DNA of 63,483 bases, filler included, from Folioceros fuciformis (taxonomy: Eukaryota): assembly GCA_049999805.1 (NCBI GenBank). It is 14 parts of 14 records of this genome, joined end to end, with 100 filler letters (N's around TTAATTAATTAA, not from the genome) between each part and the next. Parts side by side here need not be neighbours in the genome. Positions count along the whole stretch, not along the records: positions 16,770 to 27,438 come from JBNGIO010003622.1; 13 more parts are not named here. One strand, 5' to 3'. The position numbers and the translations under genes are program-made. Position 1 is the first letter of the stretch; each line of letters starts with the position of its first letter. Below the pieces are notes generated by a model. The model saw nothing but the letters and a program-made list of their open reading frames with translations. It had not been told where the DNA came from and did no database searches. Below are positions 19,049 to 54,871 of this stretch, one piece after another.

Positions 19049-22000
19049 CTACTGCCGGTCTCCACATGAACAAAACCCATTAACAAATCTGTGAACACAA
19101 TGAGAGTCTCGAACTATGATCTCTCGGTTCTCGATCCTGGACATGATCTTCGTACTACTGTGACAATCACTGCACATTCGCAGGTTCTTTGTCACAAGGA
19201 GAGGCGTGCCAACTGAAGTGTGCAGGAGACCATATGCCAATGCTAGCTTTTCAGCATGCCCACACAAGGCATCCTCCTTCTCTCTGTCTGAGACACACTT
19301 CAGCACCACGTCTACATGAGGCGCATGGCCTCCTTCCTCTCTCAACTGTACATTTAAACTCTTCAGTTTATTGGTGATGTCATCTCTGTCTTCGCCGACG
19401 ACGAAGGTGTGTACGTTGCTGTTCACCTCAATCCATGCGCTTGCAGGCTTCTTGTGTGCACCGGCACACTTTCTCAAGCTTTCTATGCCGGCAGCATCCT
19501 GACCCATACCAGCCGTCGCATAAATGTTCGCCAACAGAATATACGCAGCTGCATCTTGAGGCTCCACTTGGACAATCTGGTCAAAGCATCGCCTTGCAAT
19601 TTCTACATTGCCGTGGATTTTGCAGGCACTAAGCAGAGATCTCCACCCCACAGTTCGATCCTGAGGAGGCAAACAAAGTAACATTCGTTCTGCTTCATTC
19701 AGATTGCCTGATCGCCCCAGGAGGTCAACCATGCTAGTCTGATGGTAGACATTCGGCACCAGGCCGAACTCTTCAACCATCATTGTGAAATACATTTCAC
19801 CCTCACATACCAGACCCTCATAACTGCATGCAACCAAGAGAATGAGGAAAGTAGTCTCGTTGGGATGAGGCCCGTCGTCCAGCATTTCCTGAAAGCACTG
19901 TAATGCCAGTCTACTCTTTCTATGTTGTGCGTACCCATTCAACAGAGCATTCCATGTCACCACATTTCTGAAGGGCAATCTGTCAAACACTTTCTGAGCA
20001 TCCTCCAAGCTTGCACATTTAGCATACATGTCCACAAGGCTGTTACCAATTACCACTTCAGCCTCTAGTCCCCTTCTCTGTATCTCCAGGTGAAGCTGCT
20101 TCCCTTGATGTAAAGCCCCAACACTGGCACATGCACTGATCAAGCATACAAATGTTGCCCTATCAGCTGGATTGATGTTCTCCCGCTGCATTGTTGCATA
20201 AAGAGCCAGGGCTTCTTGACAAAGACCATGCTGCACGTATCCTGCAATCATAGCATTCCATGTCCCTACATCCCGTGTCTGCAATCTGCTAAACAATTGG
20301 TAAGCATCCAGCAAGTCACCACACTTTGCATACATGTCCACCAGGCTGTTGCCAATATCCACATCATCCTCAAGTCCACTCGCTTGAATTTGACAATGAA
20401 GCTGCTTGCCCTCATTTAATGCTCTGAGTTCGGCACATGCTTTGAGGAGGCAAATATATGACACAGCATCAGCTACAGAGATCCCCTGCTGTTGCATACT
20501 TGCATATAGTGCCAGGGCTTCTCGACCAAACCCATGCTCAGCATATCCAGCAATCATGCAAGTCCATGTCACAGCCGATCTAGAGGTCAATTTATCAAAT
20601 GCTTTTCGAGCATTGTCCAAGCTTCCACATTTCACGTACATGTCCACGAGGCAGCTACCAACAACCATATCCGTGTCAAGTTCTCTGCCTTGGATTTGAG
20701 AGTGAAGATGCTTCCCCTCATTCAGAGCTCCAATATTTGCACACGCTTTCAAAAGGCACACAAACGTGACATGATTGGGTATTACAAGGCTCTCCTGCTC
20801 CATATTTGCGAACAGCTTCAGGGCCTCGTGGCCAAGCCCATGATCAGCGTATCCTGCTATCATGGCAGTCCAAGTCACAACATCTCGGGAGGTCATTCTG
20901 TCAAAGACGGTTCGGGCATCCTCCAAGCTGCCACACTTTGTGTACATGTCAATCAAGCTGCTACCAACAACCACATTAGCATCAAGTCCAAATTTCTGGA
21001 TTTGAGCATGCAAAACTTTCCCCTCATTCAAAGCTCTACAATTGGCACAAGCCTTCAGTAGGGCAACAAAAGTCACATAGTCAGCTGAAACCTTGTCCTT
21101 CTGCATGCTTGAAAAAAGACTGAGGGCTTCTTGGCACTGCCCATGCTCAGCATACCCAGCAATCATGGCATTCCATGTAATCACATCTTTTGCACACAAT
21201 CCATCAAAGACTCTTCGGGCGTCTACTAGGCTGCCACATTTGGCATACATGTCGACTAGGCTATTGCCAATTACCACATTTACGTTCAGGCCTCTCTCCT
21301 TAATTTTGGACTCAAGGTCCTGGCCCTCGGCTAAGGCTTCAATACTGGCACAGGCTTTCAGGACGCATACGAACGTTATAAGGGTTGGGTTGATGGCATT
21401 TTCCTCCATGCGTTTATACAGCGCTAATGCTTCTTGACCTAGCCCATGCTGAGCATATCCGGCAAGCATCGCATTCCAAGTTACCACATCCTTCGTAGGC
21501 ATTTTGTCGAAAACAAAGTGGGCATCCTCTAAGCTCCCACATTTTGCATACATGTCCACCAAGCAGTTTCCAACAAAGACGTTGGGCTCGACTGCACTCT
21601 TTGCGGCGTCGGCATGGACCTCCTTGCCAGACGCCAAATCCAGTGCCTTGGTACATGCCTTGAGGACTGCCACAAAAGTATGATCATTCGGTTGGACACC
21701 ACACTGGCGCATCTTACGATAGAGATCAATAGCCTGCTCAGGCTGCTTGTTCTCAGCATGTGCCAAAATAATAGAAGCCCACATAAAAGTGCTCGGTGCA
21801 GCCAGATTGCTGAAAACCTGCAGTGCTTCATGCAACCTGCCATGAAAAGCATACATGCGGAGAATATGGTTGGCCAGGAACACATTTGAGTCGAATCCAC
21901 TTTTGAGAGTGAGAGCATGAACACGCTTGCCCAAAGCAAGATCTCTATGGACCCTGCACACCTTGAGGGCATGATAAAATAGTCCTGCCGGAACATAAAA

Positions 22001-22656
22001 CCCTTGTCCAACCAGGAGATCCAGCAATTCAACCACCTCATTCAGCTGGCCCTCCTCACATGCTTTGCTCGAGATCCCAACATCTGGACTTCCTTCACGC
22101 CTTGACACCCTGCAACGTCGAGGGAGCTGTCAAAGACAAAGTTAATCGCAGAGCTACGATCACTTGATCTCTCAAACTAATGAAAGTTCACTTTCCCAAA
22201 ATTTCAGAGACAGTATGCACCTCTCATCGACCTCAAAATCAGTTCCGGAGTAGAATTCAGAATGGCCTGAGGCTACCCACGACCGTTGGGTGCGTGTCGG
22301 TAGCGAGTCACCCTCCAGGACCTCACTCAACGTCGTGCGCACGGCTTCGGTTTCGAGTTTGCTCTGCAAAATTGAAGAGAGCAAGTGACCGACGATGACT
22401 CCGTAATCGGCCATGAATGTTCAAATCTATCACACCGATTTACCTTGTACAACCTGCTGTCCCAATTGTACTGCAAGACATCACTTGTCCCAAATGACGG
22501 ATGCCAAGCAGACAGGCCGCTTGACCCTCCCTTTCGTGCAGCATCCTGCAACGATGACAGTCGTCTGCACCATTCCTTATAAGCGAGACACGCGGGTCTC
22601 CTCTGAATCCGGCTGGACAAAACCAGATTGCAACCCGCGCGACAACCTTTCTTCAT
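19049..22656 (-). CDS. PLS-class pentatricopeptide repeat protein with E1/E2 and a C-terminal DYW:KP deaminase-like domain, ~1138 aa; exons 22656-22444, 22363-22221, 22109-19049
   Basis: Seven tandem PLS units (VDMYAKCGSLEDA / VVTWNAMIAGYA / TFVCLLKACA), then P2-L2-S2-E1-E2. The terminal domain reads KPASAWIEV...CGHAEKLALAYGL...KNLRMCSDCH...CSCGDRQ. Two GT-AG introns (80 and 111 nt) join in phase to an ATG exon rich in R/S/L/A, resembling an organellar transit peptide. Confidence 0.95.
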
Positions 22657-23679: not shown

Positions 23680-26600
23680 TCAATAAGTACCGGTGGAGCA
23701 TCCGTTCTGCCAGCCAGTACAAATGGAAGGAGGTTCACCAAATGCCAGGAGTCCGACCTTACATCCTTCAACTCGGGCTGAAGAAACTTAGTGGTCCATG
23801 AGACGATACCTGAGAGCAGTTCACAATCCCGAATTCTAAACCGTCCACAAGGGCTCGAAAGCTGGCCTCCACGATGGAAGAGTGCGCCCCGACCTGGAGA
23901 GGAATCGGACCTCAGAAGAGACGTAGCTAATGCAGATGTTTTGGGATGGCGGGAAGTCACATACCGTCGTCCACTTGCTACCATTGCCGTCGGTAAAGTC
24001 AATTGTGACTCTGGTTGTGGACATCGAGCCCTTTCTAGCTACCAAAGGCTCTAGCAGTCGGACTCGGTAGTCCGACAACTCTACTTGCTCAAGCTGTGGA
24101 TAATGCTCCTCCAGTGCCCGTCTGCTCTGATCAAGTTCCGTATTAACATGACACCATTGCGGGAGGTCGTGAGTTTTCCTCCTGGCTGAGAAGTTGGGTC
24201 AGGAGCGTACCTCAGTGCATGGCTGAGGGCGTCGACAGGTCCATTGCCTTCGGCGGCGCTCATCTGATAATCTCGCGGGTGAGAAAACTCAAGAAGTAAC
24301 CTCAAACGCAAATCACGTTTAACAAGAAGGAACAGGACCAACCTGGACTGAACTACCAACGAGTAACTTGACTAAAGCCTGGTTGACTTGTACTTCGTTC
24401 TCGATAGGGTTCACCCCGCTTTTGGAATCAGGCTTCATGTCAGCTTCGCTACCCTGTGACCCTCGATTGCTAGAGATCACGGAGAACTCCAACACACGAA
24501 AACTGAGATAACAGCACCTGTCAGCACATGTGACAAAGTACAGAAAAGTGGTGGAAGGCTGCGATTGTTTACAAAATGATTGGAAAGCACTTACGGTTGT
24601 ACATAGTCCTTGCCCTTCCGTACAATCAGCATGTCCACGGAAGCAGATGCATTCTCAAATGCACAACCCTTAGGATGCAATCGCAATACGCTTATCAGAG
24701 TAAGTACACTTGTAAGCAACGAGAAATATTTGCTAGTGGAACAAAAGCCAGAAACTTCACTGCTCAGACATTCGGTGTACCTCATTCTCCATCTGCTTGA
24801 TGCGAGCTAGAACGCTGCCAGCAACGTCTTTATCGAGCACCAAGCCTGCTTTCTCTGCCTAAATTCACATGACATGTTACACATCAATTCAGGGCAGGAG
24901 TAAGGAAGATTCAGGGGCATGTCCAGACATGATAGAGGCGCAGAACGTGCCTTGTCCAAGATGTTTCCTCGTCCGGAAAGCTCGCTCACAACAGTGCGCA
25001 TGGTATTGCCCACGAGTGTGGGATCCATATGATTGTAACTCTCAGGCATCTGCTAGCGAAATATGGGTGACGACAGATCTTTTTTGACATCAAATTGCAA
25101 CATCCCACTGCAAACGCTTAGATGGAAAATCATACCTTACGAAGTGCTGCAACGTGAATTCCTCCTTTGTGTGCAAAAGCACTCGATCCTACGTAAGGCT
25201 GTGAAGGTGACAGTTCCTGTGCGGCAACTTCAGCCACAGTGCCAGCTATCTCTGCTAGTCGTGGTAGAAAGGCAGGAGGTATGCAGAGATGACCAAGCTT
25301 GGCTTGCAAACCTCCAATGACACTCACCTTCGATGCAAGAGAAAGGACGACTGAGAACATATAGAGGAAGCTGACACTACTGCGAAGGGATCCCAGAAGA
25401 CAAAAGAGCATCGAAGAAGGAAGCCTTTGAAGTCATACCAAGTTTGCATTTCCAGTGCGCTCTCCATAGCCATTCATGCAGCCTTGCACAAGAGATGCAC
25501 CACCTCTCACAGCTGATAGACTATTAGCCACGGCCATATCCGTATCATTGTGAGTATGGATACCCACCCTGACTTTGGGCCAATCCTTAAGTGCTGCTTT
25601 CACCTCTCGAGTCCTTGCCTGCATTGCACAAAGTGCTATAATAGAATGCTCAAAACAGGGCAGGCACAAAAATAGGCTTATACCTCAATGTCCCAAGGCA
25701 TGGAGCCACCATTTGTGTCACATAGCACGACAACGTCAACTCCTGCTTTAGCTGCCGTTTGTAAGCAGTTCAGTGCATACTCCCTGAACAACACGTCAAG
25801 ATGAAATCACCTCAGTCTCTGGAGCCAGACTTGAACGACAGCTCCCTGTAAGTACACTTACTTGCCTGTTTGCAGTCATTCCGTCAAAGAAGTGTTCAGC
25901 ATCAAGCATCACCTCTCTCCCTCGGACCTGAATTGTGATACTTCACTTGAGACAAGGCTTCCGGGGAAGCCAACAGCTGCTGCTGAAGGGACTCACCGCT
26001 AACCTTGAAATAAGTGACAGTGTCGGCTATCATTCTCAAGTTCTCCTCGAGGGTTGTCTCTAGAACTCGGAACACTTGAGCATCCCAAGCCTATCACTTC
26101 CACAGGAAGTTTCAATCGTCTGGGATTCATGAAGGGCGCAGCGCTGTTAACACAAGACGAGCCCGGCATACCTTCGCTACCAAAGTAATAACCGAGGCTT
26201 CACACGAAAGTAAGGCTTGGACATTTGTATCCTGTGATGTGCACCTTCGGTTAATAAAAAATGCTTCAGCACATCAACCGTGAGAGTTCACAAGTAATTG
26301 ACAGCATAAAGACCAGACAGTACAGTCAGACCTCATCACATGAGGAATTTTTTCGACGAGTTGCTCCAAAAGCAGCCAGCTTCGTTCGACCTTGTGACTT
26401 CGAGACAACAGTTTCACAAAGGCTGAAAAAATCGGCATCTTTGGGATTTGAACCTGGCCATCCTCCCTCGATGTACTCAACACCTGCACAACAAGAACGG
26501 CACTCTTCTTCAGCAACAGTCCGACCCTGCATAAATTGGCAGAGACACCCGAGCCCAATGGGGCTTGCACTCCAACGTCCTGAAGGCAACATGAACCCAA

Positions 26601-27188
26601 AAAAAAAAAAAAGCTCCCAGTGACTGCTACAACCTCTGATCTTATAACGTCGAGATCCAAACGGAACCAGAGGATGAAACCGAGGCGTACCTAAATCAAC
26701 TAAAGCGCTGGCAATCTTCAGCTTATCGGCAAGGCTTAATGAGATTCCCACCATCTGCAAGCACACATGAACACTACAGGTGATCGCGCCGCTAACTCCA
26801 GGCAACATGAGAACATAAAAGGCGGCAGAAGGTCATCCACCTGAGCCCCATCTCGCAGCGTTGTATCATACATTGACACACGGGATCCTGTGGCAGCGCC
26901 GTCGGCAACCCGTGGCTCCACATCAATGAGTGCCTGAACATTGCAACATTACGAACATCCAACAGTCAGAATTTTCAGCGTTTCCTCATCCGCACGTGAT
27001 TCTCAGTACAGGCGCCGGCCCCGCCTTCCGGTCGACTCAGCAAGACTCCTGCACCCGATGGGACTGCAAGCAGGGGACATGATACATACCAGCTGCGACC
27101 TTGCCGAAATTGTCCTCAGTTGCGCCACTTCCGACAACGTTTTCGCATGGAGCTCACTAGAGAAACAAGGCAACATCTGAGCCTCCAT
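23680..27188 (-). CDS. cimA: Bacterial-type citramalate synthase (CimA; DRE-TIM/LeuA-related family), ~18 exons; start and last exon approximate
   Basis: Spliced translation: [210 protein letters not shown] and AFAHKGG distinguish CimA from plant IPMS, which has FAHESGIHQDG. Confidence 0.85.
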
Positions 27189-27538
27189 CGCGAGCAGCAC
27201 AAGCGGCGCAATGCTTCAAATTGACAATGCAGGTGCTTCCTGGAGCACAAGGCATGAGAGGAACAAGTGTAGGAGGGGTCATGATCCATTCTGAACCTGG
27301 ATCGCAGCGGAGGAATGAACAAGGAGCACCGTCGCAGCGGAGGAACAAGCGAGGAGGAGCGCAAGCTCCCCGCTACGCAGGGGCTACACGCAGACCTGTG
27401 TCGCCATGCATCACACGAAGGCGCTCGGCCAACAGAGGNNNNNNNNNNNNNNNNNNNNNNNNNNNNNNNNNNNNNNNNNNNNTTAATTAATTAANNNNNN
27501 NNNNNNNNNNNNNNNNNNNNNNNNNNNNNNNNNNNNNN

Positions 27539-29510
27539 TGGCCTCATTGATGTCCATGTAGTAGGGTGTATGGTATACAACAAGACTTTGACACCAAATC
27601 TCGTCATCGAGTTCAACAACATTCGAAACGATGGGAACTTAACAATATCAATTATTCAGTGCGTGATTCACGAGTACGAAGGCTTGTTTCCCGGAGCGCT
27701 ATATTTGCAGCTAGACAACGCAATACGGGAGAACAAAAATGCGTTGTTGTTTTCTTATTTGAAAATGTTAGTGGAAAAGCGGGTTTTCTCGAAGATACAA
27801 GTCGGATTCCTGCAAGTAGGGCACACGCATGACCAGGTTGATCATATGTTTTCCAGGTTTTCAACGGCACTCGGTCGGAAGGAAGCTTTGACNNNNNNNN
27901 NNNNNNNNNNNNNNNNNNNNNNNNNNNNNNNNNNNNNNNNNNNNNNNNNNNNNNNNNNNNNNNNNNNNNNNNNNNNNNNNNNNNNNNNNNNNAGCGCGTA
28001 TACCCCCATGCCAGACGTTCAAGAGGTGAACGAGGTTCCAGACTTCAGATAGTTTGTTTGGCCTATACCCTATGGGAAAGCAGGATATCAGAGTGTTGCA
28101 GCGGTTAATCAGTTGCATAACATATCATTTGAACACCAGTTTAAGATCACAAAAGAGAGTCGCGGAGATCATGGACCTGTTACAGTTATGAGAGGAAAAC
28201 AATATTCCATAGATCAATACTGGTCGCCTGATGAAGGGATAGAACTCCTGAAAGTAGTTCCAGAGAGGAATATGAAAGCCGCTCCACTGATGCATCTACA
28301 GGTGAGAAGTAGGAAACAAAAGAGTATTACGGACGATGTGGCAGGATATAATCTTTCGCAGATTCGATCAAGATTGGAGTTCAAATTACGCCAGCACTTA
28401 GGTCTGGGCGAAGACATCTGGTGGGATTCATTTTGGGCTGAGCAAGAGGCCATCGTTCAAATTATTAATTCGGGTGTAGAGCAAGACCTTGATTGGCCAT
28501 GGAGATGGTATAATCGCGACGAGGCAGAGTTGTTAAACACCTCGTTACTCGTGCCAGATGCTTTGCCAAATGCTTTGGTATCAGAAAACCCATAGATACG
28601 AGAAGTTACTAGAAGAGATATGTATGTGGGGCTGTATAGAAGAGACGCACATGTTCGGAACGATGTTGACAGCTTCAGTGGAGATGTATCAAAGATCGAA
28701 GCAGGGCACATGATTGTTGTCCCATGCGAGACAGACGTAGACAACAAGCCTTTTTGGATCGCCAAAGTGCTGGACACGCAGAAGGAAAATGACACTCAAA
28801 ATATCACAGTCCATTGATGGGTCACGAAATGTTCAAATGCATTTGAAGGCCGATATCAAGAGGAGATGAAAGTGCCGAATGAAGACCCTGTCATGGGTTC
28901 TAGACGAGGACGTAAGCGACGGCCAAGCAGAAGACTTCGGAAGCATATTGACACAATATCTGTCGCGAACACTTTTATTTTAGCGTATGGATTTGAGTTG
29001 ACTCGTCAAAAACAATTGCACGCTCGCACTCGAAACCTTATCAGAAAGAACTTGTACATGCTTAAGCGAGATGAAGAAAATCGTGCAGATGAACTTGATG
29101 ACTAGACTATACCGGTTAAGTACTTTCATGTATACCACACTTCATATATATGAACACTGTTTGCAAAGAGTTGTGGTTGGCTATTCATAAGCACCCTTGT
29201 GGGGGTGCTCATAGAGAGCGGCTACCTCGGCCTAACTGTGCGCTGGCCTAACCCTAACTCATTTTGAATAGTTGTGGTGCACTTTCCCTAGACCCAATCT
29301 GGGTGTTCACCAGCTACTAATCGTTTGATTGGAAGGAGTGCGCCGGTCTACCGGCGCACTTAAGCAAGGAGTGTGCCGGTAGACCGGCACACTTCTCCTG
29401 TCTTCGCGCCGGTAGACCGGCACACTTCTCCTGTCTTCGCGCCGGTAGACTGGCACACTTCTCCTGTCTTCATGCTGGTAGACAGGCGCACTCCTACCGG
29501 CCAGGGTTAA
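27539..29510 (+). mobile_element. Decayed DNA transposon: DDD-type (possibly Sola-like) transposase ORF to 29105 with three in-frame stops, subterminal repeats and a putative right end ...GGG|TTAA
   Basis: Motif LYLQLDNAIRENKN...FLQVGHTHDQVDHMFSRFS. ORFs at 27570, 28113, 28620 and 28866 share one frame and are split by single TAG/TAG/TGA codons. A ~33-bp palindromic repeat array lies at 29335-29500. Confidence 0.7.
29335..29500. repeat. ~33-bp tandem repeats built on the palindromic core gccggtagaccggc, including a 10-bp-stem hairpin at 29337-29360
   Basis: agtgcgccgg-tcta-ccggcgcact, then repeated gccggtagaccggcacacttctcctgtcttc. Confidence 0.85.
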
Positions 29511-36325: not shown

Positions 36326-39300
36326 CTACAGGCTGCCCACCTTCAACTTCTGCAACATTTCAAATGCTGCGGAATGCTCCGCCTTTTTCTTATCCGACAT
36401 TTCTGTCCCTATGCAAACGGTTGGCCCACAGCCAGGCACATCCACAGTGACGGAGCATTGGAATCTGCGAGTTAGTACAGAGACGTCAGGTTTCTTCAAG
36501 GCCATCAAGAGCAGACCGAGGCAGGCCCCCGTACCTTCTAAGGTGCGCAGGGCCTGCCTCCTGGAAGACCGCGAAGGACGGGTCCCGCCACTTCTTTTTG
36601 GCACATAGCTCATGGAGAGTAGACTTCGCCCGCCTCGAGTCCAAACTAGTTGTTAGAAGTATATCACCTGCAAACAATGCAAGCTATCAAAACCATGAAT
36701 AGCCCCGAAATTGTCAACTTCGTTCTTAACTCACTCGAAGATTATAGATCCACTGGGTCAGGCATCCAGACCTGCACTGGTCGTACTGACGTCAGCATGG
36801 GTCTGCACTGGCTGATAAACATCTGCGAACAGCGTCATCCTCTTCTTGGCCATACCGCAAGCAGAACCTGTACCGTCTCCAAAATCAAGTTTCCTCTTCA
36901 TAATAGGTGCATGATTTCCATCTAATTGAAGGTCCTTGTCAATGGACACCCATTCATCAACATTCGTGTCCCCCTCCTCACAACGTATCTCAACTGGGAT
37001 CATAGTTTCGTCTGAAGTCAAAAGCTCTTGATTCAGAGATACTAGCAATTCTGTGAGCCTATGAGATGAACCGGAATCAGCTGGAGGGCATCGCTCTCCT
37101 GCACTCTCTTCTGACAATGAATCTGAAGGGAACGGGAAGTCCTCCGGATTGGAAACCTTTTCTGTTCGATGCCTATATTTCTGCTTTAAGCAAACAATAT
37201 TGTTAAAGATCCGTACATCTCGCGACTGAAAACAAGAAACGAGGAGGAATGCGAAACATCCCACCTGCAACTTTCGCAGAAGTTTCTGTGAGACATCCTT
37301 GCGAGCAGCCTTTCTACTCGTAGTCGTGGATGAAGCTGTGAGTGACCTTTCGCCATCAGAAATTTTCACTGACGCGGTGAACATGTCCTCATGGCCACCT
37401 ACTTCTGTGTGCACGGAGAATCCTTGGGTCTGACACAGCTGTAGTAACTCCCTAACAGGATGAACAGTGAGAGTTGCTGGTGTTACAAGCGGACAGAGCA
37501 ACTTTTCCATCACATCCCATGTTCTGTCCAGATCAAATCCAGTGTCGAGAGCTATTGCCCCAGCTATACTTTCCACCATGTCTCCAAGGACCTACCATGA
37601 ACAAGAGATCAGTATGTCGACATTAAAAGTACTGCTTCAAGACTTAGCAGCTAGGGGAAGGATACCTTAGGTCCACTCTCCTTTTCCCATCCACATACAC
37701 GCTCTTTAGTATGAGAACCTTCTTGATCTACACTCCATACAAATTGCCCTATCTGGCTTAAAAGTGCTCTTGACGAATGCCGAAGGTGATGCTGCAGGTT
37801 ATGTTTGACAGCAACTCGAGCGAAACAGCCATTGTTCACAGCAGCTGCTCGAAGGTCTGTCAGCTGCCCGGGAGCCAGATCCGGGTAAGATGTGAAAAGC
37901 TGCTTTGTTATCACAAAATCTAGTACTGCATCTCCTAGGAACTCCAGCCGCTTCAGATTGTCCAAAAAGCCACCACAACCCCAGATCAGTGCAACCCAAG
38001 ATCAGTCAGACCAGAAGTTGCAGCACAAAGTGATTACAGTCATCAATCCACTCCACGTTGGTTGCTGACCTGATAGCAGCGGCTGTTCACTCCATCTTGC
38101 TGTGATGCATGAGTTATGGCCTCCACCAGGAGTGCTTTGTTGTTGAAAGTGTACCCGAGGCGAGCCTCCAAAGGACCTAAGTCAGCACTTTCAAGCACTT
38201 CTGGTGTCACTGATGCTTGCTTCTGCAGCCGACCTACTAGGCAGTTCTCGTATTCGACTTCAATTCCAACCCACCTCATGAAACGCAATGCAGCAGTTTC
38301 ACCACCGTACAAATAATATGCCCCAATCAACGACTCCACAACATCTGCCATGGTCTTGAGACACAGCCACCGATGACCATCAACACAGCTTTTACCAACT
38401 TTCCTAAACGATTTCAGGCCACCACGCTGGGAAGCACAACAAGAGTCAGCCGAAGACTTCACTCCAGTCTCAGGGACGTGAAGCTCCGCAAGGTCACAAT
38501 AGCAGACCTCCTCCAATTTTCTTCTCATGCCAGGAGCGAGCCATCGCTTTGGGTCAAAAACCTCATCCCGGATATAAGCCTGCAAAATGATATCCTCGTA
38601 TGATTGATATGAAAAGATGGGTGTCCAAAACCATTTGGACAGCAGGAGTTTGCAATAAAGTCTTACAGGTAATTGACGTGCGATAGCAAGCTTATACAAG
38701 TTGTTGTTGGAAATGGCTCGACTTCGTCTGGCTGAAAGCTGCCCTTCGTGCTTACTTTGAAATACCAAGAACAAATATCGGCTGACGGCATACTTCAGAT
38801 AAGAATCACCCAACAGCTCCAACCTTTCAAGCGATGAGTCTTCAAGACACCTGGAGGTTGTAAGAGCCTCCACAATCTGCAGAGGCACAGGAACTTACGT
38901 CAGGCAATATTGCACTTAATCTACCTGCTCATCTTTTGGTTAGTACATTCACGCACCCGTGCTAGTGGAATGCCCGGGCAATCCGAGATGGCTGAAGAAA
39001 TGGTCCTTCTCAAGTGGCTAGCCTTCAAGAGTGCCTCAAGATAATGCATTACTGAGGGGATTAAGTATGATGTATGGAAAATTGAGAGTGGCAGCCCTGT
39101 AGATATGCACAGCTCAGGAGCGATATTTGCAAATCTACGCTCCTTCTTCCCCACCTTCCTCACGTCAACTGCCCACAACATGCAGGTGTTTGTAACAATC
39201 AGCTTGATAACATATAACAGCAGAATCCTTTGCATGAATAGACAGCCCTCAGCACAGACCTAGTTGCTCTGAACGTGTGAGCAGATTTCGTACGCGGTGC

Positions 39301-42300
39301 GAATGCTTTGTTTGCAAGAATGCCTGATGGACATGTATCAGCGTCTCACCATACCTGACACAGTGACAACCTTCAGTATTGCCAACAGTCACAAAAGTAT
39401 TGAGAATATGCACATGCCAGTTCTCATATGAAGGCAGGAATGCAAAGACATACTTATCCTTGAAGTAATCTCCGTAAGTTTTTTGCGGCACCGGTCCAGA
39501 GGTTTCTGCCACATGCTCCTGCCCTTTGTTCGTAGGAAATGCAGTGATAGCATTAGTTCCCTCTAGGAGTTTGGTCACAAAGTAAAACCGACCGGTGTGA
39601 CGAGTGACTACAGCAGTATCCAGAATTCGCTCAAGGCTAACCACACCATCAGCAAGCTGCACAGGGACATTGGAACTTGCTTTCATTGGTTCCGGTTGCC
39701 CCTTTTCATCATTCAGGCTTCTGATGTCACCTAAAGAGAAGCCATCGACTTCATTCTCATGAGCAAGAAACTTTGCCACATGAGCTCCTTTTCGAACATA
39801 CTCCCAATTGATTTGTGCTTGTAAAGCGTGTGTCACACCTGATCCAGTTTGCTTGGGAAATCTTGCCAACGGTAGCAGCAAGTACATCCGTGACTGTTCC
39901 CACAGCTTGTCCAGCCTTTCTCTGGACAAACAAAGGTAATCAACCTTCCAAGATGTAAATCCAGCCTGTTTTGGTGAACGAGTCACTAGTCTGGAAAACA
40001 TGCCATTGAAGAATACCTCCTGAAACTTCTTGGCATCTTCGAGCTGTCAGGGTATACGATTTGGAAACCAGTCATTCCAGGCCTCTCCACAATACTGATG
40101 AAAGGAAAAAAGAAAACAGTGATGAACTCACCTCATTTACATTGAGTTCTACTTTTGAAGCAGGAATCAAGGCGGCATTCACCGCCTGGCCCACTTTTAA
40201 GTTCAGCTTCACCACTAGTTCAGCTGCATCATTTTCCAGCTCAGACTCCAACAGAAGGACGAAATCAACGAACTCCTTTCCCTCACAGGAAGTTGGTGTG
40301 AATGTCATAATATAAGCATACAATGAAGCTCCATGCTTACTGTTGCCCCAACAACCTTCCAAGCCTTTGGTTGAAATTGTTGCATGGAGCTCTTTCTGCT
40401 TCATGTTCCCTTCAACACGATAAGCATTGTCAGCGAAACATGAGTCATCAAAGAATTGGATCACACAACATTGAGTTCCGAAGTACCTCTCCCCACTGCT
40501 ATATTGCCCACATTGTCCACAATGCTGCTATCTGGCCCTGCATCTGTGACTGGTCGCAAGTGGTCATTTAAGCCTCCCAACTTGTGCAGCTTTTCACAGG
40601 CCCTCAGACAAACCACCTGCTTTGCCAAAGCGGCATTCTTCCTCGGGGGGCCCACTTCCTCATGGATCAATGCATTTGCAGGTAGCTTTAGAGTACAGAT
40701 GTGTTCTTTGTCTTCATTCGTAGAAAAGCAGAAGTCTGGCCTTGGAATGTAAAATCTGAACAGAACCAACAGATGGACGTTGCAATGAGGAGGTAAAACG
40801 TAGGTACATTTATCTGGTTTAGAAATTTGCTGCAGTACTGATGAACAAGAGCTCTGCTTCATGTTGCGCTGACTACAGCCCGGTGGCCAAACATAGGACC
40901 ATCAGTTGGAATGTGCAGTCATCCACATACCGATCTTTTGGTAGCTTGGAGCAGTACTGATAAACAACTGCTATGCTGGAGCTAGTAGTGACAACAGCCC
41001 CAGTGTTTTCCACCTTGTAAAACTCTGGAAGTACAGCATCTGAAGGGCATGGAGTTGGGTCGGGAGCCCGACCTTCACGGTCAAGGGACAGTGCCTTCAT
41101 ATTTCGCTCCTTCGCTTTCATTTTGATGAGTTCTCCCAGATGTCGTGCCCTCCTGTCAAACCAGAAGGGCAAACAAAGATCACGCGCAATTCTGGAATTG
41201 TGCAGTGTCCTTGATTAGATACATGCCTCCCAATTACCTATCCAGAAGGACTACGTAATCAGATCCAGGCCGACGAGCACGTCCACGAGACTGAATGTAG
41301 CTGATTGGCGACTTTGGCAGGTCGAACCTTATTACTATATTGCAGCTTTGAACGTCAAGGCCTTCCTCTGCAACATCGGTAGCAATCAAAATATTTACCT
41401 GCTCCAAAGAGAGCAAAAACTCAGAAATGGGCCAGAAGACTAGAGGACGACGCCTTAGAATTTTCTGAGATTACTCATTAAGGGCAAACATAGATAACAA
41501 CCTTGCCCAGCCGAAAGGCTGCTATAACAGACTGTTGCTTGCTGGTGCTCGTATCCACATGTGAACCGCTATTACCAGTCAGAAATTCACACCGAAGGAA
41601 AGAGAGGGAACCCAGTCTACTCAGTGCATTGACTAATTCGCACAATCCAATGGTGTCAATAACCCTATCAACGAACACAATGCACCGAAGATCTGCTGTA
41701 TCTCTGCAACATAAGAGGAAGATGCAGAGATATGAGAAGGTTGTTCAGGGATGCCATCATGTCTCACACAGAAATGTATCCCCAAATATAAATTTGGACG
41801 AGTTACCGACCTGTAGCCCTTCAGAACCTTAACAAGCAGCTTCACCTTTGGGGTCAAAAGATTATTGACCAGTTCCTGTCCAGGTTCACCTGAAGGAGTT
41901 TGAATCGGGGTGCTTGAGACAAAGCTTCACAAGTAAGGCCTCCAAAAAGAGCTGGCAAACCAACACAGCCTTTCACCTGGGAGAACAAGAGATTGGAGAA
42001 GCTTGAGGGCCTCTGAAAGGAACCCCTTTTGTTGTCTGATGACGCAGTTTGCGAGTTCGCAATCCAAACACTCAAATGTTGTAGGAGCTGCATTGTCTTT
42101 CAACAATTTCACCACCACCTAAAGAACATCAAGCTAATATCAGAGAAGTTCCAGGGTGAGTTGCATTTGCTGAAGCACACAGACATACCTCCATGGCACA
42201 CCAGTATCCCAAGTCCGTAACACAATGCAGAATAGATCGACAGAGCCTGGAGATGTGGCTCTTGAGCCTTTTTGAAGCTATCTTCTGGTCTTCATATTCT

Positions 42301-43903
42301 CTACTGGGATTGGATGCTCTGGACTTTTCTTCACTGAGCACTGCATACTGGAAGTAGGGGCAATTACCCTCCACATGTGTCCAGAAACATGACAACGGAC
42401 ACCTTAGAAAGCGCTGGCAGTAGCTTCAAACGCTTTAATAATACCTTCTCTTTCAGCTCCTCCAAGGCGGAACTTAGTCTTGGATTACAATGGATGCCAG
42501 GACCCTCGTAATAGTACCCAATTTCGTTCGGGGACGGGGCAAAAGATTCTACTGCTAAGCGATCTTTTGGTGTGCAAACCTGCAAACTCCAGCCAAAACA
42601 CCTTCAGTGGGAAGGGAGCTAATCAGTTTTACAAATGCATCTCGTGTCAAGGCTATGGAGTGTGCAGGACCTGGGCGTCCAGCATCTGTTCCAGCTCCTT
42701 CATTTTCATTTCACAGTCCTCCATGTCATTAACCCCTGGCGCACCGTGGATAATTAGATTTGAACTACCAATGTGAAGGCGGCATAAGTGAAGATCTGAA
42801 AACTCTTTCGCTGTTGACCTACCTCGAGTAACTGGAGAAGCTGTCATTCCAAAAACTTTCGGTTTATAGTGGGATGCACGGTAATGCTCCTGCAAGACAC
42901 TCCATCAGCCTCCGGTTCTCTGAATCAAAGCACATTCAAGGTGTTTAAGATTCATGTTCACTTCGGCATTTACCTCCATTATCTTTGCATATGGATTTTT
43001 GCCCTTTGCATGATGACACTCATCTAGTATCAGAACTTCAACAACATCCAATTTAATCTTTGCAGTGTTCAAGGCATCTAAGAACACCTGAGGAGTCATG
43101 ACCAAAACCTGAACACGGGAACACACTTAGATAAAGCCAAAAGAGAGGGCCAGCACAGCAAGATTGCTCCATTGAATAATGTGCGCGCCTCATGGGTCTC
43201 AATCTCTTTCCTCCAGTCATCCAGAGTAAGGTCATCAACACCCCTGTCGCCGTAGTAGGCTTCTGCTCTGAAGCTGGTATGAACTCTGATAACCCCAAGT
43301 TGCTGCAATCCACCAACATGAGCTGACAACAACGATCGAGTCCATGCCTGAGCTGCGGCGGAAGGAAGAGAGCAACTACCTGAACAGCCAAGAGAACCTT
43401 GGGGACAATGAACACTGCGACACGCTTATTTAACGGGTCTCGCAGCCGAGGTGCTAAAGCCTTTAACAGCAGCACAGCAATGAGCGTCTTCCCACATCCA
43501 GTCTCAAGGTAGACTATGACATTGCGTTTCGTGGCTATCTCCAAAATTTCTAGCTGATACCTGTAGCAGCCGACACGACACGACGCAATTGCAGTCAGCC
43601 CTTTACATCACCTCTCTTGCAGCTCACAAGATCGCACAGAACTTGCCTTCGCGCAATAGAGTCGGCGTCTAATGGGACGAGCTGCTTCGTCTCCTCTTCA
43701 AGATCAGTCCCGAGCCCGCCCTTCTTTCTGGTCACCTTGACTTCAGACCGTGGTTTTTTTTTCCTACTCTCTGAACGCCTATGACGCTTCTCCCGCTTCA
43801 GAGGGTCAAGACAAGTATCATCATCCCTCGTGCGCTTCCCAAGACTGGCCTCCGCCCCCATTTCGGAGGAGAGTACCTCCATCGCAGTCTGCGAGCTGCC
43901 CAT
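36326..43903 (-). CDS. DCL3: Dicer-like endoribonuclease, most similar to the DCL3 clade (DExD helicase, helicase-C, DUF283, PAZ, 2x RNase III, 2x dsRBD); multi-exon, apparently complete
   Basis: [92 protein letters not shown]283 [17 protein letters not shown]; RNase IIIa [12 protein letters not shown] and IIIb [12 protein letters not shown]; two dsRBDs. [17 protein letters not shown] and [12 protein letters not shown] resemble DCL3. The DCL family call is firm; the subclade is an inference. Confidence 0.85.
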
Positions 43904-45538: not shown

Positions 45539-48072
45539 GAGGACGGAGCTGGTGGCTTGCAGCCGGCGTCGATCCGGACAGGCGCGGAGGGGCATTCGGG
45601 CTTGGCGGAGAAGGTGTCGCAGCTGGAGCGGGCTGCTGGGGACTTGGAGGACGCGGTGGCTGCAATCAACTCCTCTGCCTGGACGTACAAGAATCGGAAA
45701 GTGCTGACGGTTTCGGGCATGGAGGTGGGTGAGTGGTGTGTAGAAGTAGTAGTAGTTGTAGTAGTAGTAGTAGGAGGAGGAGTTATCATGTGGTGCATAG
45801 CATTATCTGCATTTGTGTGTGTGATGGCGACTGACTGTGAGATGCTGGTTTGGGATGAACAGGTTACTGGAGGGTTTCGGCACAAGTTGGCAGCAGCTGT
45901 GAATTTCCTGCAGGCGACGGAAAGAGTGATTGAAGATGTTGTGAGTGGCAACTTCGAGTGCGAGGATGTGGTGTCGAAGGTGGATATTAGGGTGGATCGT
46001 GCAGTTGCAGCTCTGAAGCCGGCAGCAGTTGCTGACTACCGATCTGTTTTGGCTAGCATTGGGTGGCCACCGCCTCTGTCGTCCGCTGGGAACAGTGAGG
46101 GTGGCCCAGGTGACAAGGGGGGCAACAACAATCCTTTGCTGGACATGGAACCGGAGGCGAGCAGCAAGTTTGAGAAGAGCTTCTTGGTGCTTGCAGGTCT
46201 GCAAGCGGTACAGATGAGACGGAAGGCACGGCAGCTCAGTCAAACTCCGGCTGCTTTCCAGCCGAGTCGGCAACAGAAGAAAAGACCGTCTGAACCCATT
46301 TGGGCTATCGACGAGCTTGTAGGGCCTGTAGAGTCTAGAGTGGAGTATCATTTCGTGAAATGGGTGAAGAGGCCGGAGCTGGTGTTTTCTCTTATCCATC
46401 GCCTGACAAAGCAGTACGTGGACGTTGTCGAGGAAATATTGCAGCCGCTGCTTGTCAGGGCCAAACTTACCGGTTGCAGAGCTAGGGAGGAATGGATCGC
46501 TGCCATGGTGAAGGTTGGTGGGAACCATCTTCGGACGCATGCTCTGCCTGATATTTTGGCTGATCTGCAGTATGAAATAGGGCTTACGGCTGCCCTCTGG
46601 CTGCATACGGTGGATGAGACTATTGCATTCGACGCAAAAATGCAGAGTCTGGCTGCGAGGTCGATTGGGTTGTTCCCTCTCCAAGGCAAGGAGCTGACAG
46701 GGGTCCAAGAAAGGGCTCTGGGGCTTGAGGTTGCCTGTATCTCGGTGTTTGCCGAGCGATCCGAGTGGCTGGCGATATGGGCTCGCCTTGAGTTTGGGGA
46801 TGCCCTGCAGAAGCTGAGATATGTTCTTGACAGGGAGGAGGCATGGGAAGTCAGATCGAGGCCGCATTTATCTTCGTTTCTCGAAGGAGCTGGCTACGAA
46901 AGCATTTCTGTGTCTCCCTTAGAGGAATTCGGGGCTCCCTCCGGAGCAGAGGCAATGACGACGAACATGGCCACTGTGATGGATCGGTGTCGAACACTTT
47001 TGGAAGCGGACCAACGCTTTACGTTTGTCAGGCTGGCGGCAGCTCCGCTGTCACATGAGTATCTCGACTACCTTCAAAGACGATGCAGAGAGGCAGAAGG
47101 TTTGACTTCTCTGGCCGATGAGGATTCAATGGTGAAGGTGGCTATCTGCACAAATGCAGCTCGATATTGTCATAGTGCCGTGCAAGATTGGGGGGAGGAT
47201 ATCTTCTTTCTGGAACTCAGAATGGCGGAGTTGAATCAAAGCGGTGATATCCCCAGCAGCACTAGCTTGGCAGATGTGGAGGGCAGCGTGTTTGACNNNN
47301 NNNNNNNNNNNNNNNNNNNNNNNNNNNNNNNNNNNNNNNNNNNNNNNNNNNNNNNNNNNNNNNNNNNNNNNNNNNNNNNNNNNNNNNNNNNNNNNNGCTG
47401 GAGGGCTTCACGAAATTCCAACACGACTGGATCAACAAACTGGTGATGGTGACCACCGGTGGTTTCGAAAGTACTTGCTGGGAATACATCCGGAACAGAA
47501 AGAGATGGCAGGACGAGGCCGAGGCTTCCTTGGATGGAACAGGTGGATCTCGCGAAGACCCCGTGGGTGGTTTGCAGGGTATACAGATTGACGACGCGAC
47601 TCTGTGCCCCTCCCCGAGCCTTGTGGATGCATTGGCAGAGTTGCAAAGTCGGCTGAGGGCGTTGCAACACGCCTTCTGCCAGACGAATTTTCTCGAGTAC
47701 TGGCGTGCACTTGCAACGTCCTTGGACCAGTCCTTCTTCTTCAGTGTCATCGCCGGGTCGAAGTTCTCAGAACAAGGTGGGCTGCAGCTAGCTGCGGACG
47801 TTCAGGCCCTGTTCAAGATATTCAAGGCGTTTTGTGCCCGCCCCGGAAGCTATTTCAAAAATCTGAGCGATGCATCCAAGCTGCTCACACTAGCTGAGGG
47901 GGAAGCCGCAGCACTGCTCCAGACTATGCAGGCTTCTGCGTGGGAAATGGAGGACGAGGCAGAATCGGAGGTTAAGGACGCAGTACAGGCTGTTTTGAGA
48001 AAGCATGGCGTGAAGAGACTGTCGTGTTCGGTGGCTATCAAGCTTTTGAACAACCGTGTGTATTCGAGGTGA
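45539..48072 (+). CDS. MAG2: RINT1/TIP20 family tethering factor (MAG2/MAG2-like); 5' partial, intron 45725-45862, apparent frame change only at the N gap
   Basis: ADYRSVLASIGWPPPL, EPIWAIDELVGP..EYHFVKWVKRPELVF, LQPLLVRAKLTGCRAREEWIAAMV, WLHTVDETIAFD, NAARYC..DWGEDIFFLEL, FSEQGGLQLAADVQALFKIFKAFCARP. Confidence 0.85.
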
Positions 48073-51950: not shown

Positions 51951-52463
51951 GGTGTTCTTTCAGTTTATCTCTCTAGACGTAAATGAGTTTTTTAATCCTA
52001 TTCTTCTAAAATAAATAAGATCTAATGATTCGAAGAGGGAGATAAATGATGGATTCGAGATTTCGGGGCTAACCATAGAAGTGATAGGCGGTGGGAGAAC
52101 AGTTAAAATTAGCAAGGGTGGCGACTTCGTTGTTTATGAAGGTGCTGTGGAATACGGGACGAGTAACCGATGGTGAGCAACATGGAAGGAAGGTTAGGAA
52201 AGGTTGTCATGTTTGGCGGGGTATTGACTAGCCGGGGAGCAGCTGCAATCCTAGTCACTCCAGCTGCACTGCAGATGAAGGCCGGCGCTTCCGATTGGCC
52301 TGCAACATGTGTATGCTTGATGTCACCGGGGAAACACCGCACCTCGTTCACAGCCTGGACTCTAAATCCAACATTCTGAACGTCCAACCTGGTGGCACAC
52401 ACTCCTCGCCAAATAGCGGTCTGCAGCGTTCTCAAGATCAGGGAGGCGTCTATAGCGAGCAGG

Positions 52464-52722
52464 ATGTCTGTCAGCGAGCATAACCACCACCACCACCACC
52501 ATCGGGAGGAGGCGTTGGAGAATCCTGACGGATACTCTGAGTGTCAGGGGTACGCTGCGCAGGTTGCACCGGCGTGCGGGTACGAATCGCAGCCCGGCTA
52601 TGGCTATGGCTACGGCTACGGCGGGCAGCAGACGCAGCCGGTCGCAGGAGGCGGTGGCTACGGTGATGGATATGGCGGGCAGCAGACGCAGCCGGTCGCA
52701 GGAGGCGGTGGCTACGGCTATG
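52464..52722 (+). CDS. 5' end of a His-tract, Gly/Tyr/Gln-repeat protein (possibly ASR- or dehydrin-like stress protein), truncated
   Basis: MSVSEHNHHHHHREEALENPDGY...GYGGQQTQPVAGGGGY x2, with GC-rich coding-like composition. Confidence 0.5.
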
Positions 52723-52822
52723 NNNNNNNNNNNNNNNNNNNNNNNNNNNNNNNNNNNNNNNNNNNNTTAATTAATTAANNNNNNNNNNNNNNNNNNNNNN
52801 NNNNNNNNNNNNNNNNNNNNNN

Positions 52823-54871
52823 TACTCTCTAGATAAGCTTACTTTATAAGCTAATCTATTATAGAGCTATATTTTTAGTAGTATTTTAATTAATTTATTA
52901 TTATTTAACTTATTTAAGTTAAGTTAGTAGTACTTAGAGTACTTTACTTAGAGTACTCTAACTTAAATTAAAATAAGCTCTATAGATTTTACTTCTTTTA
53001 TAATATAATACTATACTAATTCTTATATATATTACTAGTAGCTAATTAGCTATACTCTATACTTCTTCTACTTACTCTTTATAAGCTCTAACTAATAATA
53101 ATTTATAGATAAAAGCTTAAAAATCTACTTATATTTACTATACTACTACTACTACTACTACTTCTACTACCTCTACTACTATATCTATATCTATACCTAC
53201 TATTACTATAACTACTATATACTATACTACTACTACTACTAAAGCTTTAGCTTCTTCTAGAAAATTTATATACTCTTTAGTATATATAGTATATTAACCT
53301 TAGGTAAGTAAAAAACTTCTATTAATAGAGAGTACCTTTATAAAGCTATTAGTTATTTTTACTAATAAGTCTTATATATCTCTATTAGAGAGGCTTAAGC
53401 TCTTTACTATACTTTTTAGTAAGTATAGCTTAGAACTCTTACTTCTAGAGCTTTACTTATCTAAAACTATAACTTTTTCTTACTAGAGTTAACTAGAAGC
53501 TCTTTATACTAAGCTCTACTTAAGCTATATAAATAGTATATTCTTAGAGTACTCTTTTAGAGAGTACTATAATTCTAGTACTAGAGAAGTATAGTATTAG
53601 TACTACTCTTCTAAGTACTCTTATATAAGAGTATAAGTAGCTTATTAATTATTATTTTCTATATTATTACTAATTATATATTAGACCTAGAATTACTTAT
53701 AAGTTAGTATAGAAGCTTATTAAGCTTCTATATAATAAGAAGAAATTTCTATTATATATAAAGATTACTAAAATCTATAGAGAGCTTTATATACTTCTTA
53801 TAGAAGAGTAGTATAAGAAGAAGAAGAAGAAGAAGAAGAAGAGAAAGAAAAAAGAGAAAAAAAAGAGTAAGAAAAGCTCTTATACTACTTCTTCTACTAC
53901 TTTCTCTACTATTACTTCTACTCTTAGCTACTACTACTACTACTACTATACTCTCTTTCTAGTAAAGCTCTTTATAAAGATTCTTATTTAGTACTAGTAA
54001 GCCTAAAAGTTCTTTAAAAAGCTTCTAGAGGTTTTTATAGTATAGAGGCCTAGTATCTAGTACTTTAGTACCTTAATAATACTCTATTCTATTCTATAGT
54101 TATTCTCTAATCTATTATAGTTATAGTTTAATCTAGGTATATATATTCTATAGATTAAGTTAATTCTTAAAGTACTTAAACTATAAGTTAGATAGGTTTT
54201 TAGTAAGCTTATTAGTAGATATCTTACTTATTAGTAAGTACTATACTTTAAATAATTCTTTAGTATANNNNNNNNNNNNNNNNNNNNNNNNNNNNNNNNN
54301 NNNNNNNNNNNNNNNNNNNNNNNNNNNNNNNNNNNNNNNNNNNNNNNNNNNNNNNNNNNNNNNNNNNGCTATATATTCTATATATCTATATAGTATAGTT
54401 TTATAGTAATTCTCTTATTTTCTTCTACTACTAGGCGAATTATTTACTAATTATTATAGAAGATCCTCTAGGTTATATCTAGATCTAGTATAATCTTATT
54501 AAAAAAATACTTTATAGCTATTACTTTTTTACTTATATATTATAATACGAGTAGTTCTACTTCTATTATTAAAGTTATTACTATTAATTAATAAGCTACT
54601 TTTTATAAGATTACTCTTCTAAAAAGCTATATAATATATCTATAGAATAATCTTCTAGTTTTCTAATTATTAGTAAATAAAGTATCTTTATATATAAAAA
54701 GCTTAGTTTCTTAGTAGTTACTATATTAAATTATAAGATACTAAGTTCTATAGAAGTAGATAATTACTCTATAAATAGTATTAAAGTACTTCTTACTTAA
54801 ATTTATAAAGAACTATAAGAGCTTTAAAGCTATATATACTATATTAGATTAAATTATTATTACTATATAAA
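52823..54871. other. Extremely AT-rich scaffold with a repeat-induced point mutation (RIP) dinucleotide signature; probably an ascomycete repeat
   Basis: By eye, essentially no CpA or TpG dinucleotides and very few CpG over ~1.9 kb, with a large excess of TpA (tag/cta/tat/taa). No ORFs. Confidence 0.85.

Follow-up and report, generated by a model that had tools for sequence, protein, structure and literature searches.

Why should a plant nuclear genome carry an intron-rich gene for a citramalate synthase of bacterial type, and what would such an enzyme do there? This question is raised by a gene at positions 23680–27188 of a 63,483-nucleotide stretch of Folioceros fuciformis DNA (assembly GCA_049999805.1; the whole stretch that was analyzed is referred to here as the window). 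On the evidence described below, it is probable that this is a functional nuclear gene for a TIGR00977-type (Geobacter-type) citramalate synthase, CimA, whose product, bearing an N-terminal extension of about 48 residues, would be imported into the plastid and would feed isoleucine synthesis from pyruvate.

The gene model was obtained by tblastn with five orthologues together with the splice borders (Table 1). It runs on the minus strand from its start codon (ATG, 27188) to a TGA whose last base is 23680, and its 18 exons contain 1821 coding nucleotides, corresponding to 606 amino acids with no internal stop codon; the limits given in a first-pass annotation of the window were reproduced exactly, and its count of about 18 exons and its full CimA-type protein were confirmed. 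All 17 introns (65–207 nt) end with an AG acceptor, and the donors are GT in 15 introns and GC in the other two (introns 7 and 11), or GT in all 17 if the two border pairs are moved by 4 nt. Such shifted borders would keep the protein length and alter one residue each (E207Q and E398Q); residue 398, at the border of exon 11, is Glu in all five aligned orthologues, where the alternative border would give Gln. GC content was 0.508 in the exons and 0.476 in the introns. The catalytic-domain motifs were located at residues 56–62 (DTTLRDG), 194–201 (DAEHFFDG, exon 7), 260–264 (HTHND) and 349–357 (AFAHKGGIH, exon 10), and the C-terminal regulatory part could be aligned end to end with that of the orthologues. 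P0001 and P0002 are fragmentary gene models of other species, one of which starts exactly at the position of the exon 4 start of the window gene and then continues into intron-like sequence, while the other fuses the exon 4 equivalent straight to the exon 17 equivalent. The borders of exon 4 match those implied by both models and the borders of exon 17 match those of P0002, and these four borders seem to be conserved between species.

The family of the encoded protein was evaluated by profile scores, alignment and structure matches. Homologues were collected by phmmer with one open reading frame (ORF) of the window as query, which gave 920 proteins at E ≤ 0.001 including the full-length protein P0003. 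When the 13 stop-to-stop ORF pieces of the synthase gene were scanned against NCBIfam, 8 were matched, each of them with TIGR00977 as the best family (19.6–67.1 bits), and the remaining five were too short to match at E ≤ 0.01. Seven eukaryotic homologues scored 541–624 bits on TIGR00977, all of them passing its cutoff of 450 bits, and the same seven were far under the cutoff on every curated-cutoff model for isopropylmalate synthase (IPMS), homocitrate synthase and Leptospira CimA (171–288 bits versus cutoffs of 517–748 on the IPMS models NF002084–NF002088 and TIGR00973, with about 200–222 versus 598.7 on TIGR00973 itself; 117–148 versus 950 on the Leptospira-type CimA model NF042433; 193–228 versus 484.75 on the archaeal LEU1_arch model TIGR02090, which we take to be the subfamily containing methanogen CimA). 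We also built a hidden Markov model (HMM) from 74 bacterial members, leaving out L020 and L035, for which the picked ORF protein lay outside the family. On this model the window protein scored 671.9 bits, eukaryotic homologues that passed the cutoff 634.6–698.9 bits and Escherichia coli LeuA 262.3 bits. When 11 plant, algal and bacterial sequences were aligned, 102 columns were invariant, and the window protein kept all of them. The orthologues carry the domains PF00682, PF22617 and PF08502, and exons 15–17 of the window gene align to the regulatory domain. The nearest solved structures were those of homocitrate synthase (172 bits) and several IPMSs, followed by Brassica MAM (6e1j, 116 bits against P0153) and Leptospira CimA (3ble, 73.7 bits). 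Identity of the spliced protein was 74–75% over 547–554 residues to the Selaginella protein P0153 and to P0155 and P0156, 69–72% to those of two ferns and to P0003, and 51–54% to the best bacterial matches.

Because of these HMM scores, invariant columns and structure matches, the window protein is, as judged from its sequence, a homologue of Geobacter-type CimA and stands outside the plant IPMS/MAM enzymes, consistent with the first-pass annotation, which had placed it in a bacterial CimA-type subfamily different from IPMS/MAM. Plant IPMS, MAM and E. coli LeuA (TIGR00973-type) share the superfamily, the fold and the metal-binding motifs with it, but the homologues remain under the TIGR00973 cutoff and LeuA falls far below the window protein on the family HMM. 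Membership in plant IPMS was also considered and rejected, since the homologues failed the IPMS cutoffs and LeuA is a distant outgroup, on a branch 2.3 substitutions per site from the family.

We infer the reaction, the pathway, the targeting and the feedback by isoleucine; for the reaction, the grounds are the name of the model, gene naming, bacterial gene neighbours and a Geobacter phenotype. The equivalog model TIGR00977 bears the name citramalate synthase, and plasmid-borne homologues are named 'cimA' by PGAP. Regarding the neighbours, ORFs of nine bacterial loci were scanned, seven of them against NCBIfam, and the family gene was found in the orders leuA-fragment, leuC, leuD, TIGR00977 gene, leuB, ilvE (L003); leuC, leuD, TIGR00977 gene, leuB (L012); leuC, leuD, aldolase, TIGR00977 gene (L001); TIGR00977 gene, leuC (L004); and acetolactate synthase, TIGR00977 gene, leuC (L005). 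In L069 a leuA fragment lies upstream of the TIGR00977 gene, with two unassigned opposite-strand ORFs between them. Since a separate leuA is found nearby in L003 and L069, the TIGR00977 copy would be a second, distinct enzyme rather than the isopropylmalate synthase. In Geobacter sulfurreducens, deletion of cimA slowed growth and most of the isoleucine flux comes from pyruvate, according to PMC12131731, which cites Risso et al. 2008 for both.

In the mechanism that we propose, the enzyme would be imported into the plastid, and its TIM barrel, in which the Asp of RDG and the two His of HxH would bind a divalent metal, would form (R)-citramalate from pyruvate and acetyl-CoA. Conversion of citramalate to 2-oxobutanoate would fall to two plastid enzymes of the leucine pathway, isopropylmalate isomerase and isopropylmalate dehydrogenase, and 2-oxobutanoate would feed isoleucine synthesis without threonine deaminase, and the C-terminal LeuA-dimer domain would probably give end-product feedback.

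As for the targeting, the Tyr of the YDTTLRDG motif is residue 55 in the window protein, while P0191, an Anaerolineae protein, has it at residue 7, giving an extension of about 48 residues, close to the 50 or so that had been estimated at first. In the alignment, all 10 eukaryotic homologues with a complete N-terminus have such an extension and the bacterial protein does not; for this reason, import of the synthase into the plastid appears plausible. The start codon of the model is the first in-frame ATG after a stop, and the contig edge lies 250 bp upstream (27438). Since the fern orthologues are longer at the N-terminus and the contig ends so close, an extra 5′ exon beyond the contig edge is possible.

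Several points weigh against a plastid-imported citramalate synthase. The first 52 residues (6 acidic, 5 basic and 9 Ser/Thr) do not have a textbook transit-peptide profile and are only moderately transit-peptide-like; the extension is shorter than those of the ferns, and the gene may really begin in a further 5′ exon. The 450-bit cutoff of TIGR00977 was scored on the homologues, and the spliced window protein itself was judged by its ORF pieces and by our own HMM. We found no activity, localisation or expression data for the window gene or its eukaryotic orthologues in the literature. Substrate choice in the TIGR00977 family rests on few characterised members, none of the PDB matches was a solved structure of this family, and many bacterial homologues are named '2-isopropylmalate synthase' by JGI. 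The last two points are also what would favour an enzyme with the same fold acting on another 2-oxo acid, either as an extra isopropylmalate synthase or as a specialised or organic-acid enzyme outside isoleucine supply, and substrate shifts are recurrent among plant enzymes of the superfamily (apple MdCMS, described in PMC7826400, as well as MAM and IBMS). We regard this alternative as rather unlikely, since the curated equivalog is a citramalate synthase whose cutoff the homologues pass while failing all of the IPMS cutoffs, close bacterial relatives retain a separate leuA alongside, and every family-invariant column is kept.

Whether the locus belongs to the plant at all can be judged from its contig. 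The contig (17952–27438) contains none of the 40 N runs of the window and carries two minus-strand genes, the synthase gene and, downstream of it, a gene for a pentatricopeptide repeat (PPR) protein of the PPR-E-DYW type, whose frame lies 1.55 kb from the synthase stop codon. The PPR gene and the absence of a gap between the two had been correctly described, whereas the distance had been put at about 1 kb. That the synthase is not bacterial contamination, as had been concluded earlier, holds in view of the introns and of the PPR-DYW gene with which it shares a contig lacking N runs. Bacterial contamination or a dead pseudogene might be suspected from the strong fragmentation of the assembly, the window being made up of many small contigs and N spacers, but AG acceptors throughout with GT or GC donors, an open frame of 606 codons, the intact invariant residues and the PPR-DYW neighbour on an uninterrupted contig make either explanation very improbable.

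In order to place the protein phylogenetically, a FastTree analysis was performed with 143 rows (the window model, labelled eukaryotes, 18 bacterial P proteins, 76 of the 79 locus proteins and E. coli LeuA), from which locus proteins of ≤480 residues and the broken gene models P0040, P0164, P0166 and P0170 were excluded. An IQ-TREE analysis under LG+C20 was performed with 51 rows × 566 columns, the rows being picked after FastTree and LeuA, P0011, L020 and L035 being left out as a precaution against long branches. Both analyses gave the same picture; the support values below are those of IQ-TREE, given as ultrafast bootstrap/SH-aLRT. All 24 eukaryotic rows formed a single clade (100/99), which was divided into red algae (8 rows, two of them unnamed) and a streptophyte-type half (16 rows, 100/100). 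Within the latter, the window protein fell inside an 8-row land-plant subclade (100/98), beside Selaginella and the ferns (95/88); forcing it together with Selaginella cost 9.9 log-likelihood units and was not rejected (approximately unbiased test, p = 0.06). On this placement the DNA comes from a non-seed land plant, which would be a lycophyte or else belong to a lineage branching off outside lycophytes and ferns. A phylogeny had been suggested as a check in the first-pass annotation; here the spliced protein lies in a eukaryotic CimA-type clade, far from E. coli LeuA. Since the window protein nests in the land-plant, streptophyte and eukaryotic clades, the sequences indicate that the gene is inherited vertically from streptophyte-algal ancestors, with later losses, and not recently transferred. 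Among the origins offered at first, inheritance from algae with loss in seed plants fits best: the streptophyte clade follows the species tree, the red algae join it, and no seed plant was among the best 120 matches. That only this plant lineage took up the gene, by a recent transfer from bacteria, is a reading to which an overwhelmingly bacterial family and the lack of seed plants among those 120 matches would lend themselves, but it is hardly credible in view of the 17 spliceosomal introns, the nested position in three successive clades and an identity of 51–54% to the nearest bacteria versus 69–75% to the land-plant and streptophyte-algal orthologues. Contamination, a pseudogene and recent transfer were all rejected on the introns, the open frame, the invariant residues and the tree position.

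The eukaryotic clade was sister to six bacterial rows, four of them named as Anaerolineae or Chloroflexota (99/98), and eukaryotes and sister group together sit among other Chloroflexota, Gallionellaceae and Bdellovibrionota sequences. The sister Anaerolineae members score 710–717 bits on TIGR00977. No cyanobacterium was present in the best 80 loci of at least 600 rows from the bacterial genome scan, nor in the plasmid collection, and the relatives of cyanobacteria that were included, Obscuribacteraceae (L005) and Margulisiibacteriota (L051), fell outside the eukaryotic grouping. The tree, sampled without cyanobacterial copies, suggests a Chloroflexota-like donor to an early archaeplastid. As a separate observation, the cimA copies of L002, L004 and L009 (Gallionellaceae and other Pseudomonadota) and L040 (Bdellovibrionota) lie within the Anaerolineae-dominated part of the tree, which hints at cimA transfers among bacterial phyla.

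The distribution of orthologues was surveyed with P0003 as query, where 8000 candidates sharing most words were scored and the best 120 were listed. Eukaryotes among these were Selaginella moellendorffii (3 entries), Adiantum capillus-veneris, Ceratopteris richardii, Klebsormidium nitens and Closterium (5), as well as EukProt entries with the identifiers SM0000..., Chlat1, Mesen1 and Mesvir1, which we take to stand for Spirogloea, Chlorokybus, Mesotaenium and Mesostigma. UniRef gives the name (R)-citramalate synthase to the proteins of Klebsormidium and Adiantum, and all five named bacteria were Chloroflexota (Anaerolineae and relatives). A second search, again with the best 120 listed, used P0110, the '(R)-citramalate synthase' of Porphyridium purpureum, and showed the gene in the red algae Timspurckia, Rhodosorus, Rhodochaete, Agarophyton, Gracilariopsis, Galdieria, Cyanidium and Cyanidiococcus. 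No seed plant, moss, liverwort or cyanobacterium appeared in either list; with scoring confined to the 8000 candidates that had the most words in common with the query, this is good, if not absolute, evidence of absence. The gene is not peculiar to this lineage, of which the first-pass annotation had spoken, since orthologues are public for Selaginella, two ferns and streptophyte and red algae; the orthologue group is already deposited and automatically named, and the window gene is a new member of it rather than a new kind of system. We found no paper on a TIGR00977-type enzyme in plants or algae, and a brown-alga paper describes the role of citramalate in algae as unknown. More tentatively, and with less confidence than the function proposed for the window gene itself, it is possible that a single CimA, acquired long ago, has been retained in red and streptophyte algae, in lycophytes and ferns and in this plant, that its closest living relatives are in Anaerolineae (Chloroflexota) and not in cyanobacteria, and that it gives these organisms a plastid route from pyruvate to isoleucine independent of threonine deaminase, which was lost in seed plants and apparently in model bryophytes.

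Compared with known systems, the window protein resembles Geobacter-type CimA in HMM score, end-to-end alignment, invariant residues and phylogeny, and in its two-part build of a catalytic TIM barrel and a C-terminal LeuA-dimer regulatory domain. It differs in being encoded by a nuclear gene with 17 introns, in its N-terminal extension, in its 51–54% identity even to the nearest bacterial members, and in having a eukaryote-type linker insert and a short Cys-containing C-terminal tail that the streptophyte orthologues share. The annotated orthologues of Selaginella moellendorffii (LOC9643899), Adiantum (GOP47_0025799), Ceratopteris richardii (KP509_11G004800) and Klebsormidium nitens are 69–74% identical to it. 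The annotated eukaryotic orthologues, including that of Porphyridium purpureum, form one clade with it and have a like length class and like N- and C-terminal additions, whereas the window copy represents a different lineage of land plants. Apple MdCMS shares the proposed reaction and the idea of a threonine-independent isoleucine route in a plant; in PMC7826400 it is described as recent, derived from IPMS, limited to Malus and Pyrus, devoid of the regulatory region and able to use 2-oxobutanoate as well. The window gene, in contrast to MdCMS, belongs to another, ancient subfamily and retains the regulatory domain.

Table 1. Exons of the synthase gene and the neighbouring gene on the same contig (positions in the window).
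Feature	Position	Strand	Evidence and content
Exon 1	27090..27188	-	ATG 27188, GT donor; first 33 residues of the N-terminal extension; loose alignment to fern N-termini
Exon 2	26841..26933	-	End of extension and DTTLRDG catalytic motif; tblastn with 5 orthologues, AG/GT borders
Exon 3	26691..26754	-	tblastn with orthologues and alignment
Exon 4	26332..26483	-	Motif at residues 92-101; TIGR00977 match 55.9 bits; orthologue alignment
Exon 5	26172..26231	-	tblastn with orthologues and alignment
Exon 6	26004..26090	-	TIGR00977 match; orthologue alignment
Exon 7	25866..25927	-	DAEHFFDG motif; donor GC (AG/GCAAGT) or GT 4 nt downstream
Exon 8	25684..25783	-	LCDTNGG motif; orthologue alignment
Exon 9	25439..25618	-	HTHND metal-binding motif and GYGERTGNA; TIGR00977 match 67.1 bits
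Exon 10	25136..25327	-	AFAHKGGIH motif; TIGR00977 match 54 bits
Exon 11	24951..25049	-	Donor GC (AAG/GCACGT) or GT 4 nt downstream; orthologue alignment
Exon 12	24781..24858	-	tblastn with orthologues and alignment
Exon 13	24595..24668	-	tblastn with orthologues and alignment
Exon 14	24343..24502	-	Linker with eukaryote-type insert; orthologue alignment
Exon 15	24211..24263	-	Start of C-terminal regulatory domain (GNGPVDA); orthologue alignment
Exon 16	23965..24121	-	Regulatory domain; TIGR00977 profile positions 441-496, 37.8 bits
Exon 17	23810..23893	-	Regulatory domain; 93-96% identity to orthologues
Exon 18	23680..23706	-	Last 8 codons and TGA; 103-nt GT-AG intron before; C-terminus matches the NCSEDGC tails of orthologues
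PPR-E-DYW gene	19049..22129	-	Pfam PPR_2 379.8 bits, E motif, DYW_deaminase 111.8 bits; 1026-codon open frame

The neighbouring PPR gene keeps the HxE and CxxCH deaminase motifs, and its DYW domain ends with CSCGDRQ (19049–19060) instead of the usual DYW tripeptide. No ATG is present in its ORF ahead of the first PPR motifs, and the start may sit in an upstream exon. The window as a whole consists of small contigs (about 0.3–10 kb) joined by spacers of 44 N + TTAATTAATTAA + 44 N or of 100 N (for instance at 27439–27538 and 27893–27992), so that gene order across spacers is no evidence of linkage. The plus strand at 27540–28595, beyond the next spacer and thus on a different contig from the synthase, resembles a portion of a transposable element: one ORF matches Pfam DUF7869 (124 bits), and the 180-codon ORF behind it has no Pfam match. 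Fragments of a Dicer-like gene were observed on the minus strand at 36758–43607, where the ORFs encode, in the order expected, a DEAD helicase domain, a weakly matching PAZ domain, a Ribonuclease III domain and a weakly matching dsRNA-binding domain. A RINT-1/TIP-1 family domain (62.8 bits) is encoded by a long plus-strand ORF at 45539–47296. The region 52001–56000 is very AT-rich (GC 0.25–0.34 versus 0.45–0.51 elsewhere in the window).

The intact CimA-type gene of the window has counterparts in lycophytes, ferns and algae, and therefore non-seed plants may make isoleucine from pyruvate. With an active enzyme, isoleucine synthesis would have two entries in non-seed plants and in many algae, one of which bypasses the feedback-controlled threonine deaminase, and models of amino-acid metabolism in ferns, lycophytes and algae would be affected. 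The gene could also provide a natural, plant-adapted CimA for engineering, and it would be a clear example of how a gene of ancient bacterial origin was retained for about a billion years before its loss on the lineage to seed plants. Should the plastid route based on an ancient CimA prove true, the textbook view of threonine as the only source of isoleucine in plants would be limited to seed plants.

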